In this document: one piece after another, positions 42,001 through 61,909 of the stretch
How positions within the stretch are numbered: the first letter of the stretch is position 1
Layout of the letters: each line of letters begins with the position of its first letter
Assembly: GCA_965216755.1 (NCBI GenBank)
Contig: CBDCGL010000011.1
Span: 672,001 to 736,000, forward strand
Reading direction: 5' to 3'
DNA length: 64,000 bases
DNA from: Alphaproteobacteria bacterium
GTDB taxonomy: Bacteria > Pseudomonadota > Alphaproteobacteria > UBA7887
Notes under the pieces: generated by a model
The model's input: only the letters and a program-made list of their open reading frames with translations
Told to the model about the DNA's origin: nothing
The model's database searches: none
Made by a program: the position numbers and the translations under genes

Positions 42001-42277
42001 AAATGGCGCGGAATTTCGTCAACCCGATACAACAGATAGCGAACTTGAGATTGCGAAAGAAGCGCCATTCAATCGGGTGACATGTCGCCCTGGGGAGGGA
42101 AGATTGCCGCTTCGCGGTCGCAAAGCTTGCGGATTCTGAGGCGACCGTTGCCATACTGAAAGCAAGCCGCTCTCAATGAGTTGGTTTGTCACGAGACGAT
42201 CTACTGAGGCGTCTTTCCACTGACCGGTGCTGCATCGTCGCTTCGGACGACTCCACAATATAGGGAGATGCATGCCG

Positions 42278-43147: not shown

Positions 43148-43168
43148 CGCATCGCGCCGGGTAGGAGA

Positions 43169-43681
43169 GTGATCATGACAATGACAGAATCGACGGGGAA
43201 CCGCGAACAAGTTCGCGTATCACTAGATGTTAATGGCGTCCATTACGAACGCGACATTGAACCGCGCAAACTGCTTTCAGACTTCTTGCGCGAAGATCTT
43301 GGTTTGACCGGTACGCATGTTGGGTGCGAGCAAGGGATATGTGGCACCTGCAATGTGCTTGTCGACAGCCAATCAGCGCGCGCCTGCCTGTTGTTCGCGG
43401 TCCAGTGCGATGGTGCCCAGTTACGTACGATCGAAGGGCTGGGAACCGTCGACAACATGCATCCCGTGCAAGAAGCCTTCTGGGAAAATCATGGGCTGCA
43501 ATGTGGGTTTTGTACGCCCGGTATGCTGATCTCGGCGGTCGAACTGCTCGAAAACAATGCGTCGCCATCAACCGAAGAAATACGCGAAGCAATATCGAGC
43601 AATTTGTGCAGATGCACGGGCTATCAAACCATCGTCGAAGCGGTGCAGGATGCGGCCCAGCGTATGGGAGGGGCAAAGTGA
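43169..43681 (+). CDS. Xanthine dehydrogenase-family [2Fe-2S] subunit (CoxS-like)
   Basis: GCEQGICGTC...C, QCGFCTPG, NLCRCTGY. Confidence 0.95.
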   Translation: MIMTMTESTGNREQVRVSLDVNGVHYERDIEPRKLLSDFLREDLGLTGTHVGCEQGICGTCNVLVDSQSARACLLFAVQCDGAQLRTIEGLGTVDNMHPVQEAFWENHGLQCGFCTPGMLISAVELLENNASPSTEEIREAISSNLCRCTGYQTIVEAVQDAAQRMGGAK

Positions 43682-46146
43682 TGACGCGCGGACAAGAGTT
43701 GTTGAAGAAGTCGCGGCAGAAGGAGGCTCCACGCGACGAATATAAATGGATCGGCAAGGATATGAAGCGGGTCGAGGACCCCCGATTGCTGACCGGTCAG
43801 GGAAGATATATCGACGACATTCAATTGCCCAACATGGCCCACGCTGCGGTGCTCGGTAGCCCTTACGCCCATGCCAAGATCGTGTCGATTGACAAACAGC
43901 GCGCGGAGGCGCTGCCGGGTGTTGTGTGTGTACTGACTGGGGCCGATATTGCCAAAACAACCGGTCCGGTGCCGTCTTTTGGAAGCCCGCCATGCACGCA
44001 ACATTGCGTTGCAATTGATCGCGTGCGTCATGTCGGCGAGGCAGTGGTGGCTGTCGTTGCCGAAACGCGCTACATCGCCGAAGACGCGCTGGCGCTGATC
44101 GACGTCACCTACGAGGAGTTACCGGTTGTCGTGGATCCGGAGGCCGCCGTCACGTCGACGGGCGACGCCGTGCTACATCCGGAACGGGGCGACACGAATG
44201 TTGCGCTGCAAAAAAAGTTCACTTTCGGCCCCGTCGATGATGACTTCAGCAATGCCGATCGAATCGTCAAAAGAAAGCTGCGGTGGCCAAGGTCGGGCGC
44301 ACAACCCATGGAGACCGTGGGGGCGGTGGCAAACTATGATCCGGGTGCCGGGAAGTTCACGGTCCATGCCAATATCTCGATGTACAACTATGTTGGCTGG
44401 CTTATTGCTGTCTCACTTAACGTGCCGGCCACAAAATTGAATATCATTCCAACGGACGCCGGCGGCAGTTTTGGCAGCAAGCTGTTTGCGCACAAGGTGC
44501 CGACGCTGACCGCCGCGCTGGCACGCGCCGCGGGCCGGCCGGTCAAGTATTTGGAAGACCGGTCCGACAATATGGCCAATTGCGACAATCATGGGTCTGA
44601 TCGCGTCTACTATGCAGAAATGGCGCTAAAGGACGGCCTGATGACCGGCCTACGGTTCAAAGTCATCGATGACTACGGCGCCTACTTGCAGTTTGGCGTC
44701 GGCCATCACGCCAACGCGCTTTCCCAGGCATCCGGGCCCTACAAGCTCACCAGCGTTGAGATGGATTTGACCGCAGCCTTCACCAACAAGTGCCAGCAGG
44801 GCGCCTATCGCGGGTTCGGCTCGGAAGTGATGAACTTCCTACTGGAACGCATGGTCGACGCGGCGATTGACGAAGTCGGCGCGGATCCGATCGAGTTCCG
44901 CCGACAGAACTTGCTTAAGCCAGAAGATTTCCCGCATGTCATCCCGACCGGCAATCTTTACGACAGCGGCAATTATCCGGCGGTACTGGATGAAGCTGCG
45001 AACCAGCTTGACTATCAAGGTTGGCGCCAAAAACAAGCCGAGGCGCGCAAGGACGGCCGATATATCGGCATCGGCGTGGCGTCATGCCAGGAACGAAGCG
45101 TATTCAGTGCGACGGAGTTTTGGTTCCTGAACCCGACCGATACGCCGGGTTTCACGCTGACCAGTTCGCCGGAGGGCGTTTCGGTCAAGATCGATCCGAC
45201 CGGCAAAGCCTTTGTGACATTGAACGCGCCGTTTTGGGGCAATAGCCCCGAGACGGTTGTAACGCAAGTCTTGGCCGAACAACTGACCATGGATCCGGCG
45301 GATATCAGCATCGGTTATTCAGATACCGATTCGGGGTTGAGCGGCACCGGACCAGGCGGCAGTCGCTATACAGTGATGATTGCTGGCGCGCTTTCGGGGG
45401 CGGCCGAAAAGATCAAAAAGAAGCTCCTGACTGTGGCAGGACATATGCTGGAAGCCAGCCCGGGCGATCTGGAACTGGCCGATGGCCGGGTGACCGTAAA
45501 GGGCGTGCCGGAACATGGCAAAACCATCGCCGAAATCGCATTGCACGCACATTATTTTCGGTTGTCCATGCCGGATGAGCCGGAATTAACCAGCGGTATC
45601 GACGCGAGCCACACCTACGACCATCCGCTGACCACCATGCCATCGGACGACCGGACCGATCTTGGCGTCTTCTATCCGATCATGGGTCATATGTGCCACA
45701 TGCCCGTGGTTGAGGTCGACATAGAGACAGGCAAGATCTCGTTCCTCGACTATGTCGCGGTGCACGACTGCGGCACGATGGTCAACCCGATGACCCTGAA
45801 GGGCCATATCCGTGGTGGCACGGCGAGCGGCATTGGTTCTGCAGTCTATGAGCATTTCTACTATGACGAGAATGGACAGCTGTTGACGGCCAATTTCTCG
45901 GACTATCTGATCCCAACACTGCACGAACTGCCGGAGAATTTGCGCACGGGACATATCGAATCGCCATCGCCTTTTACGGAGTTTGGCATTAAGGGTGGTG
46001 GTGAGGGCGGCCGGATGGGGGCACCGCCGGCGGTGGCGGCAGCGGTCGAAGATGCGCTGAAGCCGCTTGGCGTCAAAGTCGACGCGTTGCCACTAACGCC
46101 CATTAACTTGCGTCGCCTCATTCGGTCCGCGCAGCAGAGCGCGTGA
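43681..46146 (+). CDS. Xanthine dehydrogenase-family molybdopterin subunit (not a CO dehydrogenase by motif)
   Basis: RVEDPRLLTGQGRYIDD, GGSFGSK, GAYRGFG loop, HDCGTMVNP, GIKGGGEG; TGATG overlap with the S subunit. Confidence 0.92.
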   Translation: MTRGQELLKKSRQKEAPRDEYKWIGKDMKRVEDPRLLTGQGRYIDDIQLPNMAHAAVLGSPYAHAKIVSIDKQRAEALPGVVCVLTGADIAKTTGPVPSFGSPPCTQHCVAIDRVRHVGEAVVAVVAETRYIAEDALALIDVTYEELPVVVDPEAAVTSTGDAVLHPERGDTNVALQKKFTFGPVDDDFSNADRIVKRKLRWPRSGAQPMETVGAVANYDPGAGKFTVHANISMYNYVGWLIAVSLNVPATKLNIIPTDAGGSFGSKLFAHKVPTLTAALARAAGRPVKYLEDRSDNMANCDNHGSDRVYYAEMALKDGLMTGLRFKVIDDYGAYLQFGVGHHANALSQASGPYKLTSVEMDLTAAFTNKCQQGAYRGFGSEVMNFLLERMVDAAIDEVGADPIEFRRQNLLKPEDFPHVIPTGNLYDSGNYPAVLDEAANQLDYQGWRQKQAEARKDGRYIGIGVASCQERSVFSATEFWFLNPTDTPGFTLTSSPEGVSVKIDPTGKAFVTLNAPFWGNSPETVVTQVLAEQLTMDPADISIGYSDTDSGLSGTGPGGSRYTVMIAGALSGAAEKIKKKLLTVAGHMLEASPGDLELADGRVTVKGVPEHGKTIAEIALHAHYFRLSMPDEPELTSGIDASHTYDHPLTTMPSDDRTDLGVFYPIMGHMCHMPVVEVDIETGKISFLDYVAVHDCGTMVNPMTLKGHIRGGTASGIGSAVYEHFYYDENGQLLTANFSDYLIPTLHELPENLRTGHIESPSPFTEFGIKGGGEGGRMGAPPAVAAAVEDALKPLGVKVDALPLTPINLRRLIRSAQQSA

Positions 46147-48435: not shown

Positions 48436-48680
48436 TTGTGTGACGAGCACACCCAGCACGGTGTTTTTGGCTCACTACGCGCCAATGCGAAGACTCATAT
48501 GGACATATTATCCACTTGCTTCCGCCGCGCGCGTGCGTATGATTTGCCTCACTCGGTTCGGCTTACAAATCGCATTGCCATGGTCTGCTGGACAACGTTT
48601 CCGACGTGCAATGAATGCGTGCGAAATCCCCACGGCGCCATCCGACGATTCTATCGAGCAGAGACGGTAGCCATGACAGG

Positions 48681-49217
48681 ATGCCCTCGGGTACTTCTGT
48701 TCGGCTGATAATTATCGCTGGAGCCGCCTTGGCGTTCACTGTCGCCAACCAAGTCCAAGCCGGCGTGGGTGGCGGCGTCGGCGCGTCGGCAAGTCAAACC
48801 ACGAGCGCAAGTGCCAATGTCGTTTCGCCAATCACGCTGACCAACAACGTTGGTCTGTCCTTCGGCACATTTGCACCGTCGACCAATCCGGGCACGGTTA
48901 CTGTTGACGTTGCGGGCGGAAGATCCGTTGTCAATGTCGGTGCGGCCGGTGGCACGGTGACAGCCGCAATTTTCTCAGTGGGTGGCGAGACAGGCAACAT
49001 CTTCGACATTACTTTGCCATCCAGTACAAGTATCGATCTGGTTTCAGGCGGCGGTGACCCGATGACGGTTGATAGTTTTGTCAGTGTTCCGGCGACGTCC
49101 GGGACTTTGTTCGGCGGCGCGTCGAGTCTATTTGTCGGCGCCACCCTCAATGTCAATGCCAATCAAACGGCCGGTTCCTACGAAGGCAATTTTGATGTCA
49201 CGGTGGCCTATCAATGA
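48681..49217 (+). CDS. DUF4402-like pilin subunit 3
   Basis: Signal ending VQA; ASANVVSPITL...LSFG...GTVTV; FVGATLNV...GSYEGNFDVTVAYQ. Confidence 0.88.
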   Translation: MPSGTSVRLIIIAGAALAFTVANQVQAGVGGGVGASASQTTSASANVVSPITLTNNVGLSFGTFAPSTNPGTVTVDVAGGRSVVNVGAAGGTVTAAIFSVGGETGNIFDITLPSSTSIDLVSGGGDPMTVDSFVSVPATSGTLFGGASSLFVGATLNVNANQTAGSYEGNFDVTVAYQ

Positions 49218-49371
49218 CGTGCAAATGCGATGAATTGTCATGCAAAGTGCATAATCCCATGATAGCATCGCTAATAATGTCCGCGCTATTAGTGAAAACG
49301 ATGACGGCCGCGCAAGCGATTTATTTTGGGATATTGGGGCCAATTCATCAACGATGACATCGGAGGGAAGA

Positions 49372-49899
49372 GTGCACACACCGTTGAGATTGATCGCTGC
49401 CGCGACAACACTGTTCATCGCGGGAACCCTGAGCCAGCACGCGTTCGCGCAGGCAAGCGCGACCGAATCGGCCGATGCGACTGCCAACGTCATTGCGCCG
49501 ATCGGTCTATCGCATATTGGCGACTTGGGTTTCGCGGATTTCATAGTTACAGGAGCTGGGACAGTTGTGGTTGACGCCTCGGCGTCGCGGTCGGCCACCG
49601 GATCTGTGACTTTGGCCGGCGGGACACCAACCGTGCCAACTTACACCGTCACCGGTGAAAGCGGTCGAACGTACCAAGTTGATTTGCCGGCAGACAGCGC
49701 CCATTCGGTCACGAACGGCGTCGATACGATCGATCTCATCAGTTTTGTCGACAGTTTCGGTGGTACAGATGCCGCGCCGCTTGGGGGCACGATTGGCACC
49801 TCTGACGTATTCACTGTCGGCGCGACCCTAAACATCCTCGGTGCCGTATCGTCGGGGCCGTATTCGGGATCTTTCGACGTTATCGTCGCATACAACTAG
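49372..49899 (+). CDS. DUF4402-like pilin subunit 4
   Basis: GGAGG RBS; signal ending AFA; ATANVIAPIGL...LGFA...GTVVV; VGATLNI...GPYSGSFDVIVAYN. Confidence 0.88.
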   Translation: MHTPLRLIAAATTLFIAGTLSQHAFAQASATESADATANVIAPIGLSHIGDLGFADFIVTGAGTVVVDASASRSATGSVTLAGGTPTVPTYTVTGESGRTYQVDLPADSAHSVTNGVDTIDLISFVDSFGGTDAAPLGGTIGTSDVFTVGATLNILGAVSSGPYSGSFDVIVAYN

Positions 49900-49973
49900 T
49901 CGAACGCTAATGCTGTTCGCGGCGGATTATTGCGCGCAGTATCTCACCGCTATTTGCTGAATTCTGGCAACAC

Positions 49974-50825
49974 GTGAATTTTCATCACCTCAGCGGACTT
50001 CGTGTTTGGCTTTGTTTGCTTCACGTCTTTGTGGGCAGCGGAGCGAACCTCGCGTACGCCCAAGGCATCGGCAACGTCAGTGTCAATCCGACGCGGGTCG
50101 TGCTGGAAGGGCGTGCGCGGAGCGGTGAGGCGACTGTATACAATCGCGGTAATGAGCCGGCCACCTATCGGATATTCTTTCGTGAGATGGCCATGACCGC
50201 CGAGGGTGGTTTGCAGACCTTGGAAGAGGTGCCAGCGAATTACCCTTCGGCCTCGTCGATCATTCGCTACTCACCGCGCCAAGTGACACTTGGGCCTGGC
50301 GAAAGCCAAACCATACGATTGCTCGCGCGTAAACCGGCGGATTTGCCGCCCGGCGAGTATCGTTCGCATTTGGTCGTGCAGGCTGTGCCCCCACCCGATG
50401 CAGGGCAAACCATCGAATCGTTGGCGCTGGAGGAAAACCAAATTCAGATCCAACTGATTCCGGTGTTCGGGATCTCGATACCGATCATCGTCCGCCACGG
50501 CGAATTGGCTGCAACCGCTGCCTTGTCCGACCTGGCGATCGAAAACACGGCGAACGGCCCGCAGCTCAACTTGCGCATTCAACGCGACGGCAACAAATCC
50601 CTCTATGGCGATATCGCGGTGACCTACACCAACAGTGGCTCAAGCGAATTTCAGGTCGGTCTGATTCGCGGCGTCGGTGTCTACACGACAACCGACAGCC
50701 GAAACGTTCGTCTATCATTGCAGACGCCGAGCGGTGTATCCCTAGCTGCTGGCGGAAAAATCAGCGTCACGTATCAAACTGACAACGGGCAGCTTCTCGC
50801 TCAGGCGAGTCTTGCTCTGCGCTAA
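49974..50825 (+). CDS. Periplasmic fimbrial chaperone (PapD-like fold)
   Basis: VSVNPTRVVL, YSPRQVTLGPGESQTIRL, GEYRSHL, ISIPIIVR, GNKSLYG. Confidence 0.88.
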   Translation: MNFHHLSGLRVWLCLLHVFVGSGANLAYAQGIGNVSVNPTRVVLEGRARSGEATVYNRGNEPATYRIFFREMAMTAEGGLQTLEEVPANYPSASSIIRYSPRQVTLGPGESQTIRLLARKPADLPPGEYRSHLVVQAVPPPDAGQTIESLALEENQIQIQLIPVFGISIPIIVRHGELAATAALSDLAIENTANGPQLNLRIQRDGNKSLYGDIAVTYTNSGSSEFQVGLIRGVGVYTTTDSRNVRLSLQTPSGVSLAAGGKISVTYQTDNGQLLAQASLALR

Positions 50826-50834
50826 GGCGACGAC

Positions 50835-53800
50835 GTGAATCGGCCCGCGCCCTTTTGGCGAGTCGCCAATTGGGCAACGGCGATTCTGATTCTGTTGAAC
50901 GCTCTTCCGCAGTTGGTCATGCCGGCTGACAGCGCTTTGGCGGCGTTGTCACCGCAACGGCCAGACGACGAGAGCTTGCTCATATTTGAGATCCATCTGC
51001 GGCCGTATTTGTTGAGCGACGGCGTGTTCGCCTATCCGGCAGCGGACGACGTCCTGTTGCCACTCGAGACGCTGTCGTTCTTGTTCGAGTTCCCAATTAC
51101 CATCGACCTGGCGAAGGGACGCGCTGAAGGCTGGTTCCTCAGCGAGGATCGAACGTTCTTGCTCGACCTCGTGGCAGAACAGGTGCTGATTGCGGGCGCG
51201 GCGGCCCGCTTCGAGCCTGATCTTGTCGCTTGGTACGACGACGATATCTACGTGGCGGCGCGATTGTTCACCGAGTGGTTTCCGATAGATCTTGTTGTGC
51301 AGGCCGCGCGCCTGGTCATCGACGTGGAACCCAGAACGCCACTTCCGTTGCAGGAACGTATGGGGCGCGAACAGCGCGCCGCACGTTTGGCCTCGGCCTC
51401 CGAAGCGCCAAAACTACCACGCCGCGAAACGCCATACCGCGCCCTCGATTGGCCTTATATCGATGCCTCCTTGCGGACCGGCTACGATACGGTGCGCGCC
51501 GACACGGGCTGGGGCTTCGAAGGCAGTTATGGGTTTCGTTTAGCCGGTGATCTCGCCTACATGACGGCGGACAGTTTCTTTGGCGGCAATCAAGATGATC
51601 GCCTGTCCCAGGCGCGGTTGACCCTGGGGCGCCGTGATCCTGACGCAGATCTTCTTGGTCCTGTCGGCGCAACACAATTCAGTCTCGCCGACGTGTTCAC
51701 GCCCCAGCATCCATTGATCGCGCGTCAAACCGAAGGGCGCGGGGTGAGCGTGTCGAATATGCCGCTGACCCGCGCAAGCGAATTCGACCGCACGACGTTG
51801 CGCGGCCCGCTTTTGCCAGGCTGGGAAGTTGAGCTCTACAGAAATGACGCGTTGATCGCGTTTCAGCGGGCCGGCGACGATGGCCGCTATGAGTTCCAAG
51901 ACGTGCCGCTTATCTTCGGCAACAATCGATTGACTCTCAGATTCTATGGGCCCCAAGGCCAACGCCGCGAAGAAACGGAATCACTGGTTATCGGTGCGGA
52001 CATGGTGCCGCGTGGAGATCACCGTTACGCGGTTGCCGTCAATCAGCAAGACGAAGCCACACTGCCGTTTGGCGATGAACCACGTCGTGCCGGGCAACCA
52101 GACGCGAGCCGAGGTCAGGCGCGCGCGGTCGCCATTTATGAAGCCGGCGTTCACGAGCGCGCGTCCGTCGGCGCCGCAGTGGCGAGTTACGTTCTTGACG
52201 ATGGCCGGCATACCTACCTGACAACAGGTGTTCGCGGGACGGTTTTTGGCAGTTTCGTTCGCGCCGACATTGCGCGAGATTCAAAGGGTGGTACAGCCGC
52301 GCAGCTGGCTATGCAAACGAGAATTGCCAATCAAAGCCTCGCCGCCGAGCATGCCCAGTTCTTCGATTTCATAAGTGAGCGTGAGACGCAAACCGGCGAC
52401 CTCTTGCGCAGTGAAAGTGCCCTGCGCCTGAACGGGACTTTGCCGCGGTTTGGCGGATGGCAAATTCCGTATGCCTTGCGTCTTGGTGTCGAGCGTCGCG
52501 AGTCGGGGCTCACAGAGTTCGACGTGTCAAACCGCCTGTCCGTTCATATCCGCGCGTTGTCGTCGTCAAACCAACTGAATGCCCGCGCCAGGCGCGGTGG
52601 CGGTGTGGCGAGCACCGAAACCCTCGATGGCTCATGGTTAATCAGCTATCGCATGAAAAGTGTATCGATGCGCGGCGAACTCAGTTATCGCGTGCATCCG
52701 TCGCCGGATTTTTTGTCGGTCGCATTGACCGGTGACTATCGGATCGAGCCGGATATCACGGCACGGGCCGGCATCACGCGACAATTGTCGAACGACCGCC
52801 ACACGACTATTACCGCGGGACTGTCTCAGAGATTCGAACATGTGGCGATGGGTCTCGACGGGCGTGTGGCCGACGATGGTGATAAGTTTGTCGGGCTATC
52901 GCTGTCCTTCGCCATGGGGCGCGAACCACGGGGCGGCGGCTTAACCATGCAGCCACGCCATTTCGCCGAGAATGGCGGTGTTTCGGCGCGCGTTTTCCTG
53001 GATCGGGATTTGGATGGGCGTTTCAGCCCTGGCGACGAACCGCTGGAAGGCGTCGCCCTTAAGGGCACCGCAAATGATACGCCGACCACAGACTCCAATG
53101 GCATTCTGATGTTGGTCGGATTGCCAGACGCGCGTCCCACCGATGTGGCCGTCGATATGACCACCTTGGAAGATCCGTATCTGATTCCGCTTGACGACGG
53201 CTGGGAAATCGTGCCGCGCGCGGGCCGCACGGCGGTATTGGATTTCGCCGTCGTCCCAACCGGAGAGATCGACGGTTTTGTCTATTTGCGTTCAAACCAC
53301 AATGCGCAGGTTGCATCGAATGTGAGTTTGGATCTGCTCGACATGAATGGGGCCATCGTCGCCAATACCAGATCTGCTTTCGACGGTTTTTATCTGTTTG
53401 AGTTTGTAAAGCCCGGTTCATATGAAATTCGCGTGGCGCCGGGGCAATTGGATCGCCTCGGTCTGCTTCCGGCACCCGATAAAACCGTCACGATCGGGCC
53501 GGATGGCGATGTAATCAGCGGCGTCGACATATTTCTCGAGCGGGAATTTGAAGACACACGCGAAGCGTCGCTGGCTCCAGCGGGCCAGGCCGCCGATGTC
53601 AAGCCACCATCTACGTCGGAGATCGTCAGTGCTGCGGATCGGGCCGTGCCCGTGGGGACCGACACCTATGTACAATTGGCGGCCTACAGCAATGCACGCG
53701 GCGCCATGGAGGCGTGGCATCGTGTTGTCACTTCGGCTCCCGAGATGTTCAACGGCCTGAGTCCACGCATAGAACCCGCGGAATCGGTAGTTGCAACGGA

Positions 53801-53918
53801 CACACTTTATCGGCTGAGAACCGGTCCTCTGGCTGATCGCGCTGCGGCCGACAATTTCTGCCGGCAATTGCGGATCATCGGTCAGGATTGTTTTCCGGTC
53901 GTTCAGGTCGGCCGCTAA
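50835..53918 (+). CDS. Usher-like outer-membrane protein with Cna-B/SdrD-like domains and a C-terminal SPOR domain
   Basis: GWEVELYRND, YEFQDVPLIFGNN...YGPQGQ; strand-rich barrel; VFLDRDLDGRFSPGDEPLEGV; DGFYLFEFVKPGSY; YVQLAAYS...LYRLRTGP...C...C SPOR. Confidence 0.82.
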   Translation: MNRPAPFWRVANWATAILILLNALPQLVMPADSALAALSPQRPDDESLLIFEIHLRPYLLSDGVFAYPAADDVLLPLETLSFLFEFPITIDLAKGRAEGWFLSEDRTFLLDLVAEQVLIAGAAARFEPDLVAWYDDDIYVAARLFTEWFPIDLVVQAARLVIDVEPRTPLPLQERMGREQRAARLASASEAPKLPRRETPYRALDWPYIDASLRTGYDTVRADTGWGFEGSYGFRLAGDLAYMTADSFFGGNQDDRLSQARLTLGRRDPDADLLGPVGATQFSLADVFTPQHPLIARQTEGRGVSVSNMPLTRASEFDRTTLRGPLLPGWEVELYRNDALIAFQRAGDDGRYEFQDVPLIFGNNRLTLRFYGPQGQRREETESLVIGADMVPRGDHRYAVAVNQQDEATLPFGDEPRRAGQPDASRGQARAVAIYEAGVHERASVGAAVASYVLDDGRHTYLTTGVRGTVFGSFVRADIARDSKGGTAAQLAMQTRIANQSLAAEHAQFFDFISERETQTGDLLRSESALRLNGTLPRFGGWQIPYALRLGVERRESGLTEFDVSNRLSVHIRALSSSNQLNARARRGGGVASTETLDGSWLISYRMKSVSMRGELSYRVHPSPDFLSVALTGDYRIEPDITARAGITRQLSNDRHTTITAGLSQRFEHVAMGLDGRVADDGDKFVGLSLSFAMGREPRGGGLTMQPRHFAENGGVSARVFLDRDLDGRFSPGDEPLEGVALKGTANDTPTTDSNGILMLVGLPDARPTDVAVDMTTLEDPYLIPLDDGWEIVPRAGRTAVLDFAVVPTGEIDGFVYLRSNHNAQVASNVSLDLLDMNGAIVANTRSAFDGFYLFEFVKPGSYEIRVAPGQLDRLGLLPAPDKTVTIGPDGDVISGVDIFLEREFEDTREASLAPAGQAADVKPPSTSEIVSAADRAVPVGTDTYVQLAAYSNARGAMEAWHRVVTSAPEMFNGLSPRIEPAESVVATDTLYRLRTGPLADRAAADNFCRQLRIIGQDCFPVVQVGR

Positions 53919-53940
53919 TGTGCCCATCTGGGTGCGACTA

Positions 53941-54474
53941 TCATTCGTACCCCACCGTCACCTGAAACGTCCCGGTATAGCTACCCGGCATTTGACCGGC
54001 CGTCGTGTTGATCACCGCACCGACCGTAAACGAATCCGTGCCGCCGGAGATGACGCCAAATGCGCCGCCCTTGCTGTCTTCAAAACCATTAACAATCATT
54101 GTCGCGCTCGCATTGGTCGTGTTCTCGACCGAAGCATTGATCGGAAGTTCTATGGAATAGGAACGATCACCGCCAATCACGACAAATGCAGCCGCGCTGA
54201 CGCTGCCACCAAGATGCTGGACGCCGCCAGACGAGTTCGGCGTCCCCGTCGAAGCCAAGATCTTGACTTGGCCAACGCCTGTGACGAAAAAATCCCCGAA
54301 CTGAAGCGGTCCTGTGTTCTGCAAGGTTATGGGTGCCAATATGGTGGCGGAGACATTCGTGGTTACGTCAGCCGCGTCGGCATGCGCGCCGACTAGGCCA
54401 CCACTCAGGATTGCAACAATGGTAACCTCAGCAACTGTGCGATATTTCATGCAAAACGCCATGTGGCAACGCAT
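53941..54474 (-). CDS. DUF4402-like pilin subunit 5 (convergent; start may be 54450)
   Basis: VSATILAPITL...LQFG; FTVGAVINT...GSYTGTFQVTVGYE. Confidence 0.85.
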   Translation of the reverse strand: MRCHMAFCMKYRTVAEVTIVAILSGGLVGAHADAADVTTNVSATILAPITLQNTGPLQFGDFFVTGVGQVKILASTGTPNSSGGVQHLGGSVSAAAFVVIGGDRSYSIELPINASVENTTNASATMIVNGFEDSKGGAFGVISGGTDSFTVGAVINTTAGQMPGSYTGTFQVTVGYE

Positions 54475-54680: not shown

Positions 54681-55113
54681 TGGCGAAACGCCGGAGTCAG
54701 GACACGAGCCGAATATTTGGATCTCGTGTGGTTCACGGATCGGACGTTCGCTCTGGTGCTCGATGCAAGATCAAGCGAACGTCCGATCCACCGCACGCGC
54801 GCATCGGGCAAGTCGGCCGACCAATGTGGTCGTCCACATGGATTCCCATTGGGGGACGCCTGCGGGTCGCAAACCCGCAGGGCCGGGCGATTTTGTGACA
54901 ATCGCGACGACGCTGTCCGTAGCCGTATGCCCGATACGGCCTGCGGACATCGACTTGATCTTGTCACAAAGTCGCTCCGACAGAATGGTTCAATATGGTC
55001 GGAAAGTGCTCTAGATCAACCTGCGATCAAACGGAATCGTTTGATCGAAGATAAGTTGACCGATATCAAATAGATAAAGCCTCACACGTGAACGCATGTG
55101 AGCGTGAAAGGCT

Positions 55114-55911
55114 TTAGCGGCGCACCGCCGGCGCCTCGATCGGTAAGCCCGTTGCACGCCAAGCCAGAAACAGTTCAAGATTGACATAATCCGGCGCGCC
55201 AAAGGGGAGGGGTTCGGCGCGGACCCCAGCGTTGCAGAAGCGTAGCCGGCGATGGAGCGAGCCGACGGTCTGCCATTCCAGGCGATAGGACGGGTAGCCG
55301 TTGCCATGACCTTGGCTCAGTCGATCGCCGCGTAGCATCTTATCCCAGTTGTCGTCGTGACAGTGGCTGCATGCCAAATTCAATTGGCCCCGCCGCTGAT
55401 AAAAATAGGTCCGTCCGGCCTCGAAATAGGGTCGAGCCGCGCCATTCACGCCAACATGTATTGGTATCCCATTTGATAGGTACGCAACAAAAGACGTCAG
55501 TTCGAGAAGGTCTTGGGATTCGTAAGGCAGCAATGTTGCTTGCTGGTAACGCTGACGGCAAAGGTTAATGCGCTGCTCTAAATTAACCAGATGTTGTTCT
55601 TGGTCATCGTAGATCGGGTAACGGGCGGCGACACCAGCCAAATCGTCGCCGCCGGTCCCGTGACAATCAGCGCAGGCGATTGCCGCCGATCCTTCGGCGC
55701 GGCGCCACAGATCTTCACCGGCATCAACCCAAAGGAATCCTGGATTGGCGAACGGGTCGTCCTGGAGCGCGCGCGTGTCTGGAGACTGAAACGCATAGCC
55801 GGATTGGAGCGAACCTGGTGAGAGTGGGCGATCGTCCGAGGCGAGGTCGGAAACGCGGATAAAAAGCATCGCGGCGACAACAACAAACGCTGTTATGCGC
55901 GCGGCACTCAT
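55114..55911 (-). CDS. soxA: SoxA-family diheme c cytochrome
   Basis: LQDDPFANPGFLWV, CADCH, RINLC, RRGQLNLACSHCH, YPSYRLEWQ, RLRFC active-site Cys, LELFLAWRATGL. Confidence 0.9.
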   Translation of the reverse strand: MSAARITAFVVVAAMLFIRVSDLASDDRPLSPGSLQSGYAFQSPDTRALQDDPFANPGFLWVDAGEDLWRRAEGSAAIACADCHGTGGDDLAGVAARYPIYDDQEQHLVNLEQRINLCRQRYQQATLLPYESQDLLELTSFVAYLSNGIPIHVGVNGAARPYFEAGRTYFYQRRGQLNLACSHCHDDNWDKMLRGDRLSQGHGNGYPSYRLEWQTVGSLHRRLRFCNAGVRAEPLPFGAPDYVNLELFLAWRATGLPIEAPAVRR

Positions 55912-56228
55912 GCGACCGTGATACGGGCCGTCTCGCGAAAAGTGACACCCTCTTGGTCAGTCCACAGAAATTCCATCGCCCCACTCTCGACCGCGGTCGT
56001 GAAAAACGACAGGAGCGGGTTGGCGGCCACCGCCGGGCGAAACTCCGCCCTGAAAACTTCCATGCCGTTATAAAGGCAGACAAAATCCGTCAGGATGTTG
56101 CGCGGTATCGCCTTGCCGACGGAATCCCGTCGAAAACCTGTTTCCATGGGATGGGCGATCAAGGTCTTGATTTCGATGACCTCGCCAACCTTTGCAGTCT
56201 CTGGAACGGCGATGCGAACCTTGGCCAT
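55908..56228 (-). CDS. soxZ: SoxZ-family carrier partner
   Basis: IKTLIAHPMETGFRRD, IPRNIL, VAANPLLSF, WTD; no signal peptide; ATGA overlap with soxA. Confidence 0.9.
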   Translation of the reverse strand: MAKVRIAVPETAKVGEVIEIKTLIAHPMETGFRRDSVGKAIPRNILTDFVCLYNGMEVFRAEFRPAVAANPLLSFFTTAVESGAMEFLWTDQEGVTFRETARITVA

Positions 56229-56238
56229 GTCCCGCGCC

Positions 56239-56703
56239 CTAGATCAAATCAACGCAGGCCGCGAGGGTCACGATGGTCTTCGCGGAACCCGACCAGAGAG
56301 TCCCATCGCTCATGGCGGCGACAGCGACAATGGACTGAGAATCCGCGAGCCTTATGCGCGTAGTCACCCGCGCTCTGCCGGATCGTGCATTGAGGTAGTA
56401 TCGTGCAACGTCCGGCAACGGGTTTTCTTCGGAGAACACATGGATCGCGCGCACATGGTCTTCTTCGGTCATGGCACATTCGACCTCCACCGACAGCGAG
56501 ACCGAGTTACCATTTTCCGTGATCTCGGGCAGCGTGACGGTAACTTTGCCGTCTCGAATAGGATTGTCGCCAAAAGCGACGCGAATGGCTTCGGCCATCG
56601 ATTGCGGCGTCGCCGCGGCCGGCACCGCGACAAGACTGACCGCCGCGCCGCCGGCACCAAGGACGAACGCTCTGCGTGTCTGAGCTGTATGCAGCGGTGT
56701 CAA
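56239..56703 (-). CDS. soxY: SoxY paralog with atypical C-terminal AACVDLI arm
   Basis: Tat motif TRRAFV, PEITENG, ENPLP, TRIRLADSQ; ends IVTLAACVDLI, not VTIGGCGG. Confidence 0.85.
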   Translation of the reverse strand: MTPLHTAQTRRAFVLGAGGAAVSLVAVPAAATPQSMAEAIRVAFGDNPIRDGKVTVTLPEITENGNSVSLSVEVECAMTEEDHVRAIHVFSEENPLPDVARYYLNARSGRARVTTRIRLADSQSIVAVAAMSDGTLWSGSAKTIVTLAACVDLI

Positions 56704-57185
56704 CGGCTTGAATCCGTGGTTCGTAATGTCTCCAAATAGGCGACCACGTCCTCAATCTCTTGTGCGCTGAGAACGGTCTTGCCGACAAAGGCGCGGCTGA
56801 CCTGGCGCAGGCCTTCAACACGGAAATAGGTTGGCATGACCGTATTGGCATTCAACCGAGTCGAATCGACCAGCCGAAGTCGAAACTGCGCCGCGTTCAA
56901 GCGATCCGCCACCATCGACAAGTCGGGGCCCAAATTGCCCTGAAAAGGCTCATCGATCGATTCCACCACGTGACACAAGAGACAATGTCCGCGATCGCGA
57001 TCAAGGAAAACGATGCGTCCGTTGCGGGCATCACCGATGCGGTCCGTGAGCGCTTCCGGGATACCATCGTCAACAACCTCGTATTCGGGCGGCACGGGCA
57101 TGGCTGTGTCGGCATCTGCAATGGCGGTTGTGATGATCGACGCCACGGCGCCGACTATCCACGCGGCCAAATTGATTGCGGGCAT
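56700..57185 (-). CDS. soxX: SoxX-family monoheme c cytochrome
   Basis: Signal peptide, GDARNGRIVF, CLLCH, GNLGPDL, TVMP, LSAQEIEDVVAYL. Confidence 0.9.
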   Translation of the reverse strand: MPAINLAAWIVGAVASIITTAIADADTAMPVPPEYEVVDDGIPEALTDRIGDARNGRIVFLDRDRGHCLLCHVVESIDEPFQGNLGPDLSMVADRLNAAQFRLRLVDSTRLNANTVMPTYFRVEGLRQVSRAFVGKTVLSAQEIEDVVAYLETLRTTDSSR

Positions 57186-57211
57186 GTACCGCGCCTCACC
57201 GACATGTCGCT

Positions 57212-59410
57212 CTAGGCGGCACTCAGATCCACATCCATCAATGGGAACTGTCGAATGCGCTTGCCCGTGGCAGCGAAAATCGCGTTGAGCACGGCCGGGG
57301 CCGCGACGGCTATCGTCGGTTCACCGACTCCGCCCCAAAAACCGCCGGATGGCATCACGATGGCCTCGACGTCAGGCATTTCCGCAATGCGCATCGACTG
57401 GTACGTGTCGAAATTCTCTTGTTCGATGCGTCCACCCTTAACGGTGCAGCCGCCGTAAAACAGAGCGGATAATCCATAGACGAAGGAGCCTTCTATCTGG
57501 GCCTCGATCTGCTGCGGATTGACCGCGTGGCCGGGATCTGTCGCGGCAACAATGCGGTGCACCTTGAGCGTGCCTTCCGCGTCAATGGAGATCTCCGCGC
57601 ACGCCGCAAGATAGCTCGCGAATGTATTGCAGGCGGCAAGGCCGCGATACACACCCTCCGGCGTCGGTGTGTCCCATCCCACGCGTTCGGCCACCGCGTT
57701 CAACACCGCAAGCGCCTGGGGGTGGTTTGCCATCAACTTTTGGCGAAACGCGAGTGGATCCTTACCAGCCGCGTGCGCCAACTCGTCCATGAAGCACTCA
57801 AGATAGATAGCGTTCTGGTTTATGTTGACCCCGCGCCAGAAACCCGGCGGCACATGCGGATTACGCATCGCGTGGTCCGCCAGCAAGTTGGGAATGGTAT
57901 AGACGATCGCGTGATCACCGCCGGGCAGAAGGCCCTGAAACGTGATCGGATCGGCACCGTCCTCGCGCAGCCGCGCCGGTCTGACCGCGGCCAGGATGGA
58001 CTGCCCTGAAATGCGGATATGCAGGCCGACCAGATCACCATTTTCGTCGAGACCGCCTTCCAATCGCGCTTGCGTGACCGGATGATAATGGCCGTGCAGC
58101 ATATCTTCTTCGCGCGACCACAGGAGCTTGACCGGGGTACCCGCCATTTGCTTCGCGATCAAAACGGCCTGGCGGACGAAGTCATGGAAGGCACCCCGCC
58201 TGCCAAAGCCGCCGCCCAAATGAATTTTGTAAACGTCGCATTGGCTCACCGGCAGTTCCGCTGCCTCGGCGGCCACGGCCAATGCGGCTTCGCCGTTTTG
58301 CGTCGGGCACCAGACCTGGCATTTTTCCGAAGTCCAAACCGCCGTCGCATTCATCGGTTCCATGGTGGCGTGGTTTTGGTACGGGTACCCATAGACCGCT
58401 TCGATCTTTTGCGAGGCCCCTGCAATTGCGGCCTTGGCGTCGCCGCTTTCGTTGCCGACAAAGGCTTCTTCTGCGGTCAAACCCTCCTTCAGGAATGCCG
58501 CAATCGATTCGTTTGAAACGTCGGCGTTGGGACCGTTATCCCACCGAATAGGCAACGCATCCAAAGCCGTTTTCGCGCGCCACCAAGTGTCCGCCACCAC
58601 CGCGACCGCGTTGTCGTCAACCCGGACAACCGCGTGCACGCCAGGCATGGACAAAACCGCACTATCGTCGAAAGACTCGACGGTTCCGCCAAAAACGGGG
58701 CACGCTTTGATGGCTGCGGTCAGCATGCCCGGCAATTTCAGATCGGCGCCGTAGACCTGTTTGCCGGTCAGCTTGTCGCGCGTGTCGAGCCGCTTCAGTG
58801 GTTTGCCTGCGATCTTCCAGTCCTTTGGATCCTTTAAGGCGACTTCAAGCGGCGGCGACAACGCGGCGGCGGCGGTTGCGACTTGGCCATAGGTCGTTGC
58901 CCTGCCGCTGGAGCTATGCGTAATCACACTTGCCGATGCGGTACATTCCGCGGCGGAGACGCCCCATTCGCTCGCGGCCGCTTCGATCAGCATCAGGCGC
59001 GCGGCCGCGCCGCCCTCGCGAACATATTGATGGCTTTGACGAATACCCCGACTGCCGCCGGTCGAGAAGCTCTGCCAAATGCGATCGCGCGCCAAGTTCT
59101 CGCCGGGCGTCGGATATTCAGTGGCCACCTTTGCCCAATCGCAATCGAGTTCCTCGGCCACCAGCTGCGCCAATCCGGTCAAGGTGCCCTGGCCCATCTC
59201 TGAACGCGCGATTCTGACGACGACCGTGTCATCTGGTTTGACCACCACCCACGCGTTGATTTCGGGTGTTTGGTCGCCGGCGATCGCGCCAGACTTCGTG
59301 CCAGGCAGCGAGAAACCGATCGATAGCCCGGCGCCCGTCGCGGCGGCACCGATGACAAATCCGCGGCGTGTCAGGGAGAGGGAGCGGTTCATTTTTTCGG
59401 CCTCCTTCAC
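57212..59410 (-). CDS. iorB: Tat-exported molybdopterin hydroxylase large subunit (isoquinoline 1-oxidoreductase beta-like)
   Basis: TRRGFV Tat motif, RSEMGQG, TGGSRGI, LGGGFGRR, FWRGV, VNPQQIEAQIEG, GGVGEP; GTGA overlap with iorA. Confidence 0.88.
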   Translation of the reverse strand: MKEAEKMNRSLSLTRRGFVIGAAATGAGLSIGFSLPGTKSGAIAGDQTPEINAWVVVKPDDTVVVRIARSEMGQGTLTGLAQLVAEELDCDWAKVATEYPTPGENLARDRIWQSFSTGGSRGIRQSHQYVREGGAAARLMLIEAAASEWGVSAAECTASASVITHSSSGRATTYGQVATAAAALSPPLEVALKDPKDWKIAGKPLKRLDTRDKLTGKQVYGADLKLPGMLTAAIKACPVFGGTVESFDDSAVLSMPGVHAVVRVDDNAVAVVADTWWRAKTALDALPIRWDNGPNADVSNESIAAFLKEGLTAEEAFVGNESGDAKAAIAGASQKIEAVYGYPYQNHATMEPMNATAVWTSEKCQVWCPTQNGEAALAVAAEAAELPVSQCDVYKIHLGGGFGRRGAFHDFVRQAVLIAKQMAGTPVKLLWSREEDMLHGHYHPVTQARLEGGLDENGDLVGLHIRISGQSILAAVRPARLREDGADPITFQGLLPGGDHAIVYTIPNLLADHAMRNPHVPPGFWRGVNINQNAIYLECFMDELAHAAGKDPLAFRQKLMANHPQALAVLNAVAERVGWDTPTPEGVYRGLAACNTFASYLAACAEISIDAEGTLKVHRIVAATDPGHAVNPQQIEAQIEGSFVYGLSALFYGGCTVKGGRIEQENFDTYQSMRIAEMPDVEAIVMPSGGFWGGVGEPTIAVAAPAVLNAIFAATGKRIRQFPLMDVDLSAA

Positions 59411-59862
59411 GTCTTGTTTCCGGCGGCCAAGTGAATCCCGCGCCGAACCCGGTTAAAAGTGCCGCAGCGGCAGATGTTGGTGATTTCCGCGTTGATATCT
59501 TCGTCAGTCGGACTTGGTGTCTTTTCCAGAAATGCCGCCACCGCCATGATCATGCCGGTTTGGCAGTATCCGCATTGGGGCACGTCCAGCTCTGCCCACG
59601 CCTGTTGGACTGGATGGTTGCCGTCCGCGGAAAGCCCCTCAATCGTGACGATTTCCTCATTTTCCGTGAGTGCGTCAGCGGGCATAACGCAAGAGCGTAC
59701 GGCTTCACCATCGATATGCACGGTGCAGGCGCCACATTGCGCGATACCGCAACCGTATTTGGCGCCTGTGAGATCCAAGTGATCCCTGAGCACCCAGAGT
59801 AGAGGGGTGCCCGCGTCCACGGTCACATCTACGATCTGTCCGTTCACCTTTAATTTGGCCAC
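59407..59862 (-). CDS. iorA: [2Fe-2S] subunit (isoquinoline 1-oxidoreductase alpha-like)
   Basis: PLLWVLRD, KYGCGIAQCGACTVH, VPQCGYCQ, NICRCGT; GGGAG RBS. Confidence 0.9.
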   Translation of the reverse strand: MAKLKVNGQIVDVTVDAGTPLLWVLRDHLDLTGAKYGCGIAQCGACTVHIDGEAVRSCVMPADALTENEEIVTIEGLSADGNHPVQQAWAELDVPQCGYCQTGMIMAVAAFLEKTPSPTDEDINAEITNICRCGTFNRVRRGIHLAAGNKT

Positions 59863-60376
59863 GTCTTAAATCTCCCTCTGCGCAACGGACCACAGCACAT
59901 GCGTTTGCCCGTTGATGCGGCGCGCGATGACAACAAGGCTCACCAGCCAATCAGGGTGCTGAGTCGCTCGATATAGCTCGGGTCCGCGCACGATCCGATT
60001 GCGAAGCTTGCTCGATACACAATACAACCTTGGCGCAAACTGGAAAATCACCGAAAAGTTGAGACCTGTATCGATTTTATATGTGCATCGGTGATGAGAT
60101 TCATTGAACGCAGTACGGTGTCAGTCCGAGTTTGGATCAATTGCATCAAGATGCGCGGACGGCCGACCGAGAAATTCAGTGGTAGATAGGGTACTGCTCC
60201 GACGAGTTCATCGGGCGGCGCATTTCTCGTTCGCGCTTTCGCATGGCCAGGTAAACATTGAGTTCCATTTCACGATGAATACGATGGGTCGCACGTTCTT
60301 TTGACCTGTTGTGGATCGCCCTAGAATTATTAAGGACGCTTCTTAATCTGCCGCACGCTCGGAAATCGGGTGAAGG

Positions 60377-61909
60377 TTGCGGCCAAACGTGGGGACCGGC
60401 GGCTTGTTTCGATACTTAATGCTATGCCTGATATTGCTTGCCGGAAGTGGGATTCATATCGCTGCGGCCGCCGATAATCTGCGGCCGTTGATACCGCTTA
60501 ATGAAAATGACGTCTGGCGCCCGGGCGAAGGCAACTACGCGGGCGAATTTAACCGTTGGCTATGGGAAAACTTTGGTGCGCCGCGGCCCATCAGCCATGC
60601 GGTGCCAGAAGCCGTGTCGGCGGACATGGCGACGACGTTCTCAAACAGCGATCAAGCTTTTTCCGCACCGCTGATCAGCCTTGGACCCAATGATCTGCGG
60701 GCTTTTGCATTCGGTCGCCATTTGTTTCGTCGCAACTGGGTCAGTGCCCCAGCGGCCCTTGAGAACCTCGATGGCCTTGGACCGACGTTCAATCGACGCT
60801 CCTGTGTTGGGTGTCATACGCGGGATGGTCGCGGTCGGCCTCCGAGCGCGGCGGATGAGCCCATGAATTCGATGTTGGTGCGGGTCAGCCTGCCAGGCAC
60901 GGATGTTCGTGGTGGCCCGGCGCCACATCCACTTTACGGCACACAATTGCAGGACAAAGCGGTTGGCGGTGTTCCCACGGAGGGACGCGTCACGATCCGG
61001 TACCGCGAGATCGCGGGAACATTCGCGGATGGAGAGCCGTATTCCCTGCGCGCGCCGATCTATACTTTTGCCGAGCTCAGATATGGGCCAATCGGTGACG
61101 ATGTGCTGTATTCGCCGCGTGTGGCGCCAGCAGTTTATGGTCTCGGGCTCCTCGAAGCGATCGATCAAGCGACGATCGAAGCGGCCGCTGATCCCGAAGA
61201 TGCCGACGGTGACGGCATATCGGGAAAAGTAAACCGAGTTTGGGATCCCGTATCAGGTAAAACCGAATTGGGTCGGTTCGGTTGGAAGGCGAATACCGCC
61301 AACCTTCGCACGCAGGTTGCCGCCGCGGCAGCTGGTGATTTGGGAATTACGACCTCTGTTTTTCCGGGGAACAACTGTCCGCCCGTGCAGAACGCTTGCG
61401 TGGATGCTCCGGCCGGAGGCGATCCGGAATTAGACGATGCCGGCCTTGAAAAGTTGGTTCTATACGCGCGCTCTCTCGGTGTGCCCGCCCGGCGCAATGT
61501 GGTCGCGCCCGAGGTACGACGTGGTGCCGAAATGTTCGAGGACGCCGGATGCACGGGTTGCCACGCGCCACAACACACGACCGGTGCCAGTCCAGCCGTC
61601 CCCGAGCTCGCCGAACTGATAATTTATCCGTACACCGACCTTCTGCTGCACGACATGGGCGAGGGGTTGGCCGATGGGCGACCCGACTTCGAGGCGTCTG
61701 GCAGCGAATGGCGCACGCCAGCACTCTGGGGCATCGGATTGGTCGAGCGTGTCAATATGCACCAGAACTTCCTGCACGACGGACGCGCGCGCGGTCTGAT
61801 GGAGGCTGTGCTTTGGCATGGAGGTGAAGCTGCGGCTGCGCGCGACGCGGTTCTGGCCATGCCCAAGACCGATCGCGACGCCTTGGTCTCTTTTCTCGAG
61901 TCGCTTTAA
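60377..61909 (+). CDS. Exported di-heme oxidoreductase (DHOR/DUF1111-like)
   Basis: DGLGPTFNRRSCVGCH, GLGLLEAI, DGDGISG, GRFGWKA, CTGCH, YTDLLLHDMG, WRTPALWG, HDGRAR, WHGGEA. Confidence 0.9.
   Translation: MRPNVGTGGLFRYLMLCLILLAGSGIHIAAAADNLRPLIPLNENDVWRPGEGNYAGEFNRWLWENFGAPRPISHAVPEAVSADMATTFSNSDQAFSAPLISLGPNDLRAFAFGRHLFRRNWVSAPAALENLDGLGPTFNRRSCVGCHTRDGRGRPPSAADEPMNSMLVRVSLPGTDVRGGPAPHPLYGTQLQDKAVGGVPTEGRVTIRYREIAGTFADGEPYSLRAPIYTFAELRYGPIGDDVLYSPRVAPAVYGLGLLEAIDQATIEAAADPEDADGDGISGKVNRVWDPVSGKTELGRFGWKANTANLRTQVAAAAAGDLGITTSVFPGNNCPPVQNACVDAPAGGDPELDDAGLEKLVLYARSLGVPARRNVVAPEVRRGAEMFEDAGCTGCHAPQHTTGASPAVPELAELIIYPYTDLLLHDMGEGLADGRPDFEASGSEWRTPALWGIGLVERVNMHQNFLHDGRARGLMEAVLWHGGEAAAARDAVLAMPKTDRDALVSFLESL

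Follow-up and report, generated by a model that had tools for sequence, protein, structure and literature searches.

The window considered here is a stretch of 64,000 nucleotides (nt) from an alphaproteobacterium of the lineage UBA7887 (assembly GCA_965216755.1, contig CBDCGL010000011.1, positions 672,001 to 736,000 of the forward strand). Its positions 55114-59862 are filled by six minus-strand genes, in which the two subunits of a xanthine-oxidase-family molybdoenzyme (IorAB) are followed by four sox genes, one of them encoding a variant carrier protein designated SoxY*. The order is iorA, iorB, soxX, soxY*, soxZ, soxA, and the list of open reading frames (ORFs) leaves no space for any further gene inside the set. 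This bears out an earlier, sequence-only reading of the window, which had described six co-oriented genes at these coordinates and no flavin adenine dinucleotide (FAD) subunit. The features of the locus are:

iorA, 59407-59862, minus strand: small [2Fe-2S] subunit of a two-subunit xanthine-oxidase-family molybdoenzyme, 151 amino acids (Pfam Fer2_2, 1.4e-26, and Fer2)
iorB, 57212-59410, minus strand: molybdopterin-binding large subunit, 732 amino acids (Pfam MoCoBD_1 and MoCoBD_2)
soxX, 56700-57185, minus strand: monohaem cytochrome c (CLLCH), partner of SoxA (TIGR04485, 73.5 bits, cut-off 61)
soxY*, 56239-56703, minus strand: carrier of the AACIE-arm paralog family, 154 amino acids (TIGR04487, 176.3 bits, cut-off 172)
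soxZ, 55908-56228, minus strand: partner of SoxY* (Pfam SoxZ, 6.4e-27; TIGR04490, 86.9 bits, cut-off 76)
soxA, 55114-55911, minus strand: dihaem cytochrome (CADCH, CSHCH) with an RFCNAG cysteine (TIGR04484, 234 bits, cut-off 110)
terminator-like hairpin, 55081-55102, minus strand: 8-pair stem, 12 nt past the soxA stop codon
intergenic region, 59863-60376, no strand: between iorA and a divergent di-haem oxidoreductase gene, with no long ORF; presumed promoter region of the operon

The spacing of these genes is largely as first described, with 4-nt overlaps at soxX/soxY* and soxZ/soxA and gaps of 26 nt and 10 nt, but a third overlap, claimed for iorA/iorB, probably does not stand. It needs a GTG start at 59410. 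Because the Shine-Dalgarno sequence AAGGAGG lies 8 nt ahead of the ATG at 59392, and because IorB homologues begin at an equivalent MN..RR in the alignment consensus, the true start of iorB is probably this ATG, which leaves a 14-nt gap. The export signals that had been reported are visible when the translations are read by eye: twin-arginine (Tat) motifs in IorB (SLTRRGF) and SoxY* (QTRRAF), and hydrophobic N-termini in SoxX and SoxA. IorA and SoxZ have no signal peptide, and IorA is presumably exported together with IorB. The operon promoter is presumed to lie within 59863-60376, where a promoter scan found no sigma-70-like site on the minus strand upstream of iorA. Terminator-like sites around the operon are no commoner than expected from shuffled sequence, and the hairpin at 55081-55102 is argued by position alone.

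The carrier is not a canonical SoxY. It scores 96.1 bits against the true-SoxY model TIGR04488 (cut-off 125), and it passes the cut-off of TIGR04487, the 'SoxY-related AACIE arm protein' (175.7 bits in the genome scan), a curated paralog family that the sequence-only reading had missed. Its C-terminus reads VTLAACVDLI in place of GGCGG, and by its sequence Cys150 is the carrier cysteine. The arm V-T-L-A-A-C-[LTVI]-[ED] (also scored as A-C-[LTVIFA]-[ED]), with 3-6 residues after the cysteine, is found in 77/77 SoxY* orthologues. The cytochromes are equally well conserved, with a CxxCH in 74/74 SoxX orthologues, and two CxxCH plus the C-terminal cysteine motif in 73/73 SoxA orthologues. The closest solved relative of SoxA is Rhodovulum SoxA (1h31, E 3.3e-56), whose haem-ligand cysteine aligns with that of RFCNAG. 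Five genomes carry both this cluster and a SoxB-adjacent set; there, the cluster SoxA is 47-55% identical to that of the window and the SoxB-adjacent SoxA 25-37%, while SoxY proteins of SoxB-adjacent copies are 25-43% identical. A SoxA tree, proposed earlier as a check, also places the linked copies on one side of a branch, but with a support of only 73. By sequence, the linked Sox proteins are thus paralogs distinct from the canonical copies.

IorAB belongs to the two-subunit periplasmic type of molybdenum (Mo) hydroxylases, with two [2Fe-2S] domains, MoCoBD_1 and MoCoBD_2, no FAD subunit and a Tat signal. The closest solved relative of IorB is 8gy3_C, the large subunit of a Gluconobacter aldehyde dehydrogenase (E 1.4e-80, full length). 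IorA orthologues, 59-82% identical, are found directly upstream of iorB in related loci. The roles of the active-site Gln, the GGGFG loop and the catalytic Glu are known from bovine xanthine oxidase and its relatives; the corresponding Q371, GGGFGRR 399-405 and E697 (of GVGEP) are invariant in 143/143 main-clade IorB sequences. Three further residues, C364, Q470 and H513 (codons at approximately 58319-58321, 58001-58003 and 57872-57874, minus strand), are invariant in the same 143/143 sequences and absent from the sister clade and paralogs, which makes them candidate specificity residues. Cys364, seven residues before the active-site Gln371, was considered as a sulfur-relay residue and dropped: main-clade members not linked to sox genes also carry C364, Q470 and H513, so that it does not discriminate between models. 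'Isoquinoline 1-oxidoreductase' is the name given by automatic annotation, and nothing in this analysis is evidence of an N-heterocycle substrate for IorAB.

In an IorB tree (FastTree, 80 sequences), of the kind that had also been proposed, all Sox-linked copies fall in one clade (support 98), with the five other IorB paralogs of the window's genome outside. The main clade comprises 64 sequences, including that of the window (support 100), and its sister clade consists of extra tandem copies of about 50% identity. Sox-linked IorB is thus distinct from other IorB; with the small outgroup sample, exclusivity does not follow. Because the Burkholderiales and Rokubacteria sequences are nested among alphaproteobacterial ones, the tree also suggests that the whole cluster has been transferred between lineages.

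The link between the enzyme and the sox genes is conserved far beyond the window. One sampling started from SoxY*, using tblastn with the window's proteins, one genome per species and the best 80 of 566 confirmed loci. In 68/80 of these, iorA-iorB lies upstream of soxX-soxY*-soxZ-soxA on the same strand, and in 11 of the 12 loci without iorB, the contig stops no more than 2051 bases upstream of the sox genes. The enzyme genes are therefore upstream in 68/69 loci with enough DNA to tell. The sole true exception, L013 (9.5 kb upstream without iorAB), has four or five main-clade IorB copies elsewhere in its genome. A second sampling started from IorB and took the 80 most similar metagenome contigs (65-75% identity): 47 have fcc or sox genes downstream, 14 are too short downstream and 19, with at least 1 kb downstream, have none. 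In 60/68 iorB-linked loci, fccAB genes also lie between iorB and soxX, for a small cytochrome c, a flavoprotein with flavocytochrome c sulfide dehydrogenase (FCSD) domains, or both. This pair, which the sequence-only reading had missed, is absent from the window, from L005 and L006 as its two nearest relatives, and from five further loci; in the window's genome, fccAB lies 1.5 Mb away. In one Burkholderiales locus (L039, 7356-15823), the arrangement iorAB-soxYZ-iorAB-soxX-soxYZ-soxA gives each of two iorAB pairs its own soxYZ pair. Beyond the eight core genes, no conserved flanking gene was found when 5025 ORFs from the 80 loci were clustered; the most frequent of the remaining families, among them ABC transporter parts, TctC and isochorismatase, reach no more than 32/80 loci and look like lineage synteny.

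Co-occurrence was also counted at the genome level, in 401 genomes of the same class and with a threshold of at least 60% identity for IorB. The TIGR04487 cut-off is exceeded in 19/401 genomes, and 19/19 of those have a main-type IorB; conversely, such an IorB occurs in 26/401 genomes, with a SoxY*-like gene in 25/26. The two genes are at most about 2.2 kb apart on one contig in 21/26 genomes, and in one (G330), the iorAB and sox modules are on different contigs. The module has been found in Alpha-, Beta- and Gammaproteobacteria, in line with the earlier mention of similar clusters in other proteobacteria, and in one metagenome-assembled genome (MAG) of Rokubacteria. A lack of linkage in other genomes had been named as an outcome that would speak against a common system; with 68/69 and 47/66 informative loci linked, that objection clearly fails.

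The module is independent of the canonical Sox pathway, because the genome of the window (5.0-Mb assembly, 99.82% complete) contains neither SoxB (TIGR04486, no match at E<=0.001) nor any true SoxY (no match over the TIGR04488 cut-off). The earlier statement that soxB, soxC and soxD are absent is correct for the window, and genome-wide for soxB alone: the genome search that had been suggested found a solitary SoxC-like gene (564.7 bits, cut-off 420) 3.3 Mb away, followed by a monohaem cytochrome c ORF (CETCH). This SoxCD-like pair (SoxC-like gene and cytochrome c ORF; G000:C11:4034644-4036525, locus L087) resembles the 'paralogous SoxCD' of PMC13500833. A SorA-like gene of the sulfite-oxidase family with a Tat signal (G000:C11:736845-738158, L088; 237 bits, below the cut-off of 600) lies 0.85 kb past the window end and about 5 kb upstream of iorA, and could encode a sulfite dehydrogenase; like the SoxCD-like pair, it had escaped the sequence-only reading. 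Among 50 of the 80 carrier genomes searched for SoxB, 29 have a match over the cut-off, 4 have high-scoring fragments, 8 have weak matches (<=172 bits) and 9 have none. A clear SoxB is thus wanting in about a third (17/50), a figure drawn mostly from metagenome-derived genomes of unstated completeness, in any single one of which the absence is unsure. Several Bradyrhizobium genomes in the SoxY* locus scan carry the iorAB-sox cluster. According to PMC5748708, B. diazoefficiens has soxY1 and soxY2, and soxY1 alone is essential for thiosulfate oxidation; we assume that soxY2 is the AACIE-arm paralog. Altogether, conserved linkage, genome co-occurrence and the lack of SoxB and true SoxY in a 99.8%-complete genome uphold the proposal of a separate periplasmic system.

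Structure prediction was applied to IorB (residues 40-732), IorA and SoxY* (residues 34-154), with alignments of 53-57 orthologues each. The fold scores 0.61, and the best of three controls 0.00. A score of 0.61 is reached by 58/80 solved complexes and 2/110 mismatched pairs, counts that calibrate this fold only roughly, given its custom alignments and three chains. Agreement among the three runs covers at least 66% of contacts, and the predicted local distance difference test (pLDDT) of the partner is at least 82. On SoxY*, the predicted interface comprises residues 59-66, 69, 94-95, 118-120, 144, 146-147 and 153, which lie in its best-conserved loops and at the base of the arm. On IorB, it comprises 372-382 (right after Q371), 406-409 (right after GGGFGRR), 476-489 and 106-116. 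In bovine xanthine oxidase, this Gln and the GGGFG loop line the molybdenum site, so we take the SoxY* interface to be the funnel side of IorB. The modelling of IorAB with SoxY*, part of a check suggested beforehand, therefore supports direct contact of SoxY* with IorB at the active-site side, but gives Cys150 no confident contact. Of the options that the sequence-only reading had left side by side, such a predicted contact fits the processing of a tethered substrate as well as the regeneration of the Mo=S ligand, and does not fit pure electron transfer. We know of no solved complex of a SoxY-type carrier with an enzyme of this kind.

These data are best explained by a periplasmic module that is complete in itself, moves horizontally between genomes and centers on a variant sulfur-carrier protein. 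For its function, we tentatively favor, at a little under an even chance and as the simplest account, a scheme in which SoxXA loads sulfur onto SoxY* and IorAB oxidizes the tethered sulfur in place of SoxCD and SoxB. The scheme builds on what is established here (gene content, family membership, linkage, co-occurrence, SoxB independence and a predicted SoxY*-IorB interface), and from there we infer the cargo, the reaction of IorAB, how the product is released and which way the electrons travel. The cytochromes SoxX and SoxA form a haem-thiolate pair, the canonical role of which is the oxidative coupling of a sulfur anion to the SoxY cysteine. In the module, this pair would charge Cys150 of SoxY* with reduced sulfur that likely comes from sulfide or polysulfide, which FccAB, where present, would supply or buffer, and possibly from thiosulfate. 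SoxY*, with its own arm (AAC-hydrophobic-acidic) and with SoxZ as a scaffold, would then present this arm to the substrate funnel of Tat-exported IorAB. There, the tethered sulfane sulfur would be oxidized with water as the oxygen donor, and the electrons would pass via the two [2Fe-2S] clusters of IorAB to c-type cytochromes. IorAB would in this way replace SoxCD and remove the need for SoxB: a four-electron oxidation to an S-sulfinate may lead to spontaneous sulfite release, by analogy with persulfide dioxygenase chemistry, and separate sulfite dehydrogenases could complete the oxidation. The sharper version of this scheme, in which the IorAB clade would be the first xanthine-oxidase-family enzyme acting on protein-tethered sulfur, an oxygen-independent 'persulfide dehydrogenase' turning SoxY*-Cys persulfide and water into sulfite without SoxB, is rather doubtful.

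Several observations weigh against the scheme. The usual chemistry of the xanthine-oxidase family is the hydroxylation of sp2 carbon, and no member is known to us to oxidize sulfur. The release step is a pure inference. Cys150, whose arm would have to enter the Mo funnel, is not among the confident contacts of the fold. Among informative IorB-sampled contigs, 19/66 have no downstream fcc or sox genes while sharing all the clade-specific invariant residues, and three of these 19 carry xdhC and mocA in place of the sox genes. Finally, one 100% complete genome, G115, has iorA-iorB-soxX-soxA (G115:C1:2354782-2359274; locus L169, 5782-10274) and no SoxY or SoxZ gene anywhere; at least one lineage, with no SoxY-like gene at all, can therefore run the enzyme in the absence of the carrier.

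The rival explanations divide over what the enzyme does with the Sox proteins. In one, the substrate of IorAB is a small molecule in free form (aldehyde, N-heterocycle or other), SoxXA and, where present, FccA accept the electrons of the enzyme, and SoxY*Z has a separate job. SoxX and SoxA are indeed the only cytochromes encoded in the window operon, G115 keeps iorAB-soxXA without soxYZ, and in L095, a relative not linked to sox genes, a gene for a dihaem cytochrome c lies just upstream of iorA; moreover, the closest solved relative, 8gy3, has three subunits, and its electrons exit via the one that is a cytochrome c. A mere electron carrier would not need the catalytic-haem cysteine that SoxA retains in 73/73 copies, however, and neither the SoxY*-like carrier accompanying the enzyme in 25/26 genomes nor the position of SoxY* at the active-site side of IorB (0.61 vs. 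0.00 for controls) is expected from it, which leaves electron transfer as an unlikely account, with perhaps the next claim after tethered sulfur. Placement at the active-site face would suit cofactor repair as well as substrate delivery. The persulfide that SoxXA and SoxY*Z, with FccAB, produce on the carrier would then restore the Mo=S ligand of IorAB within the periplasm, beyond the cytoplasmic XdhC-type machinery, and the real substrate would be a different one. That xdhC or mocA occurs within 10 kb in 0/80 SoxY*-sampled loci, and right after iorB in 3/19 unlinked contigs, speaks for this, as does the presence of a single XdhC-domain gene against at least six IorAB-like pairs in the window's genome. 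Nevertheless, four to six genes, with a dedicated sulfide dehydrogenase among them, look like a large outlay for upkeep, no SoxYZ-like gene is near at least two of that genome's five other IorAB-like pairs (judging by coordinates), G115 does without SoxYZ, and to our knowledge, no periplasmic resulfuration has been described; we regard repair as improbable.

The carrier may also hold something other than sulfur, its thiol binding a carbon compound, such as an aldehyde in thiohemiacetal form, or an organosulfur group, such as methanethiol in a mixed disulfide; IorAB would then oxidize the carbon, which is the ordinary chemistry of its family. The closest solved relative of IorB is an aldehyde dehydrogenase, and five fused SoxYZ-like genes in the window's genome are of the 'quinoprotein dehydrogenase-associated' type. 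Divergent SoxY(Z) paralogs beside periplasmic pyrroloquinoline quinone (PQQ) alcohol, methanol and formate dehydrogenases have, in PMC11237559, been suggested to take part in carbon metabolism. Against this, the constant companions SoxXA and FccAB are sulfur enzymes, and no conserved alcohol- or aldehyde-producing enzyme appears in the flanks of related loci, so only a slim probability is granted to such a cargo. The least credible account, close to negligible, is that a spare partial Sox cluster lies by chance beside an ordinary isoquinoline or aldehyde oxidoreductase. Both gene sets do match existing family models, and G330 has the two modules on different contigs, but linkage across several classes and one other phylum (68/69 and 47/66 informative loci), co-occurrence in 19/19 and 25/26 genomes, and otherwise non-conserved flanking genes all run counter to coincidence.

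According to textbooks, bacteria oxidize thiosulfate by way of Sox carrier systems, and SoxB and SoxCD are regarded as the fixed partners of these. Here, a curated but functionally blank SoxY paralog is tied to a molybdenum enzyme from a family not known to touch sulfur, and the tie extends over Bradyrhizobium, Microvirga, Xanthobacteraceae, Burkholderiales, Gammaproteobacteria and a Rokubacteria MAG. A pairing that recurs in many soil and water bacteria points to an undescribed sulfur-handling pathway. If the sulfur is tethered as proposed, xanthine-oxidase-family chemistry would widen, the 'second sox locus' of rhizobia would be explained, and sulfur-cycle inventories would need a new marker pair for genes that are now counted as soxAXYZ and 'isoquinoline oxidoreductase'. 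With a persulfide dehydrogenase, the periplasmic oxidation of sulfide and sulfane would have a third route, in addition to Sox and to Fcc/Sqr plus Dsr/Hdr. Should the Sox proteins serve to maintain the enzyme instead, this would be a first case of cofactor care in the periplasm. The question is directly testable in culturable carriers.

Other carrier and enzyme genes occur in the same genome, which has seven SoxY-like genes in all: SoxY*, a second free-standing one and the five fused SoxYZ-like genes. The fused genes have a PGGCS motif and are located at G000:C11:3506353-3512383 (L086), 1510303, 2754508, 4226293 and 4556601. One of them (3506977-3507726) stands back-to-back with a solitary gene for an IorA-like [2Fe-2S] protein, and a further iorAB pair lies at a distance of 1.9 kb. 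The second free-standing gene belongs to another carrier-enzyme cluster (G000:C11:1276332-1284254, L085), composed of a SoxY-like gene (C-terminus VTVGACA), a SoxZ-like gene and iorA'-iorB', where IorB' is 38% identical to the window IorB; genes for an FccB/SQR-like flavoprotein and an FGE-sulfatase/PvdO-like protein adjoin, and soxXA is missing. Wide conservation of this second arrangement was considered and rejected, as it recurs in just 1/250 other genomes (G192, same family), at a strict IorB' limit of 1e-200 that may hide more distant pairs. Among the contigs where main-clade iorAB is not linked to sox genes, the copies in L093, L095 and L098 are 70-71% identical and precede maturation genes of the xdhC-like and mocA-like kinds, with the dihaem cytochrome c gene of L095 just upstream of iorA.

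On the plus strand of the window, 60377-61909 encodes a di-haem oxidoreductase (Pfam DHOR, 2.2e-95), divergent from iorA, that has three paralogs in the genome (52-66% identity) and a counterpart in 0/80 related loci. A pilus-like set at about 48615-54474 includes at least two DUF4402 proteins (48615-49217, plus strand; 53941-54474, minus strand), a PapD-like chaperone (49974-50825) and a protein of 1027 residues whose C-terminal part is a SPOR domain (50835-53918). FAD_binding_5/CO_deh_flav_C, Fer2_2 and MoCoBD genes at 42227-46146 (plus strand) encode another Mo hydroxylase, made of three subunits including one for FAD and not related to the periplasmic pair; the FAD_binding_5 gene at 42227-43147 is part of that enzyme and not of IorAB.

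In the literature searched, which excluded supplements and subscription journals, no paper linking SoxY*-type sox genes to an IorAB-type enzyme was found, and 'AACIE' did not occur in any paper. A SAR324 paper mentions both gene sets, separately, and the string 'molybd' is absent from the text of PMC11237559. What is already known is that the SoxY* family is curated, that the second soxY of Bradyrhizobium is dispensable, and that SoxY(Z) proteins stand beside PQQ, methanol and formate dehydrogenases. The fused SoxYZ-like carriers (TIGR04557; SoxYZ-S2/S4 in PMC11237559) resemble SoxY*Z in that a divergent Sox carrier is tied to a non-classical periplasmic dehydrogenase. They differ in being fused, with a PGGCS-type motif and no SoxXA, and in lying beside PQQ/XoxF/formate quinoproteins rather than a Mo hydroxylase. 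As for TIGR04487, the window SoxY* exceeds its cut-off and has the arm motif of this family, which so far is known by name only.

On the enzyme side, the nearest known systems are AldFGH of Gluconobacter (PDB 8gy3) and the IorAB/PaoABC group, which likewise combine a [2Fe-2S] small subunit and a Mo large subunit with no FAD subunit and a Tat signal; with 8gy3, the similarity is confined to the large subunit, where it is full-length (E 1.4e-80), and GGGFGRR and GVGEP are kept. Unlike AldFGH, the operon has no gene for a trihaem cytochrome c subunit, its companions being SoxXA, SoxY*Z and usually FccAB, and the Sox-linked clade has its own invariant C364, Q470 and H513, absent from paralogs. The proposed functional analogue is the SoxCD sulfane dehydrogenase, also a periplasmic molybdoenzyme, which acts on SoxY-bound sulfane sulfur and gives its electrons to cytochrome c. 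SoxCD belongs, however, to the sulfite-oxidase family, a Mo-enzyme family and fold unrelated to those of IorAB, for which a link to sulfur is proposed here. With the canonical Sox system (Paracoccus/Rhodovulum type), the module shares SoxX, SoxZ and SoxA over curated equivalog cut-offs, a 1h31-like SoxA with the haem cysteine aligned, and a carrier of the SoxY fold family with a Tat signal and a C-terminal cysteine arm. It also shares the FccB-like flavoprotein gene that accompanies the sox genes in most related loci, for which the flavoprotein pair SoxEF of Paracoccus is comparable. It departs from that system in the arm of SoxY*, AAC[LTVI][ED]xx(x) where the canonical one is GGCGG, in the absence of SoxB from the window's genome and of SoxCD from the operon, and in having a xanthine-oxidase-family molybdoenzyme as its constant partner.

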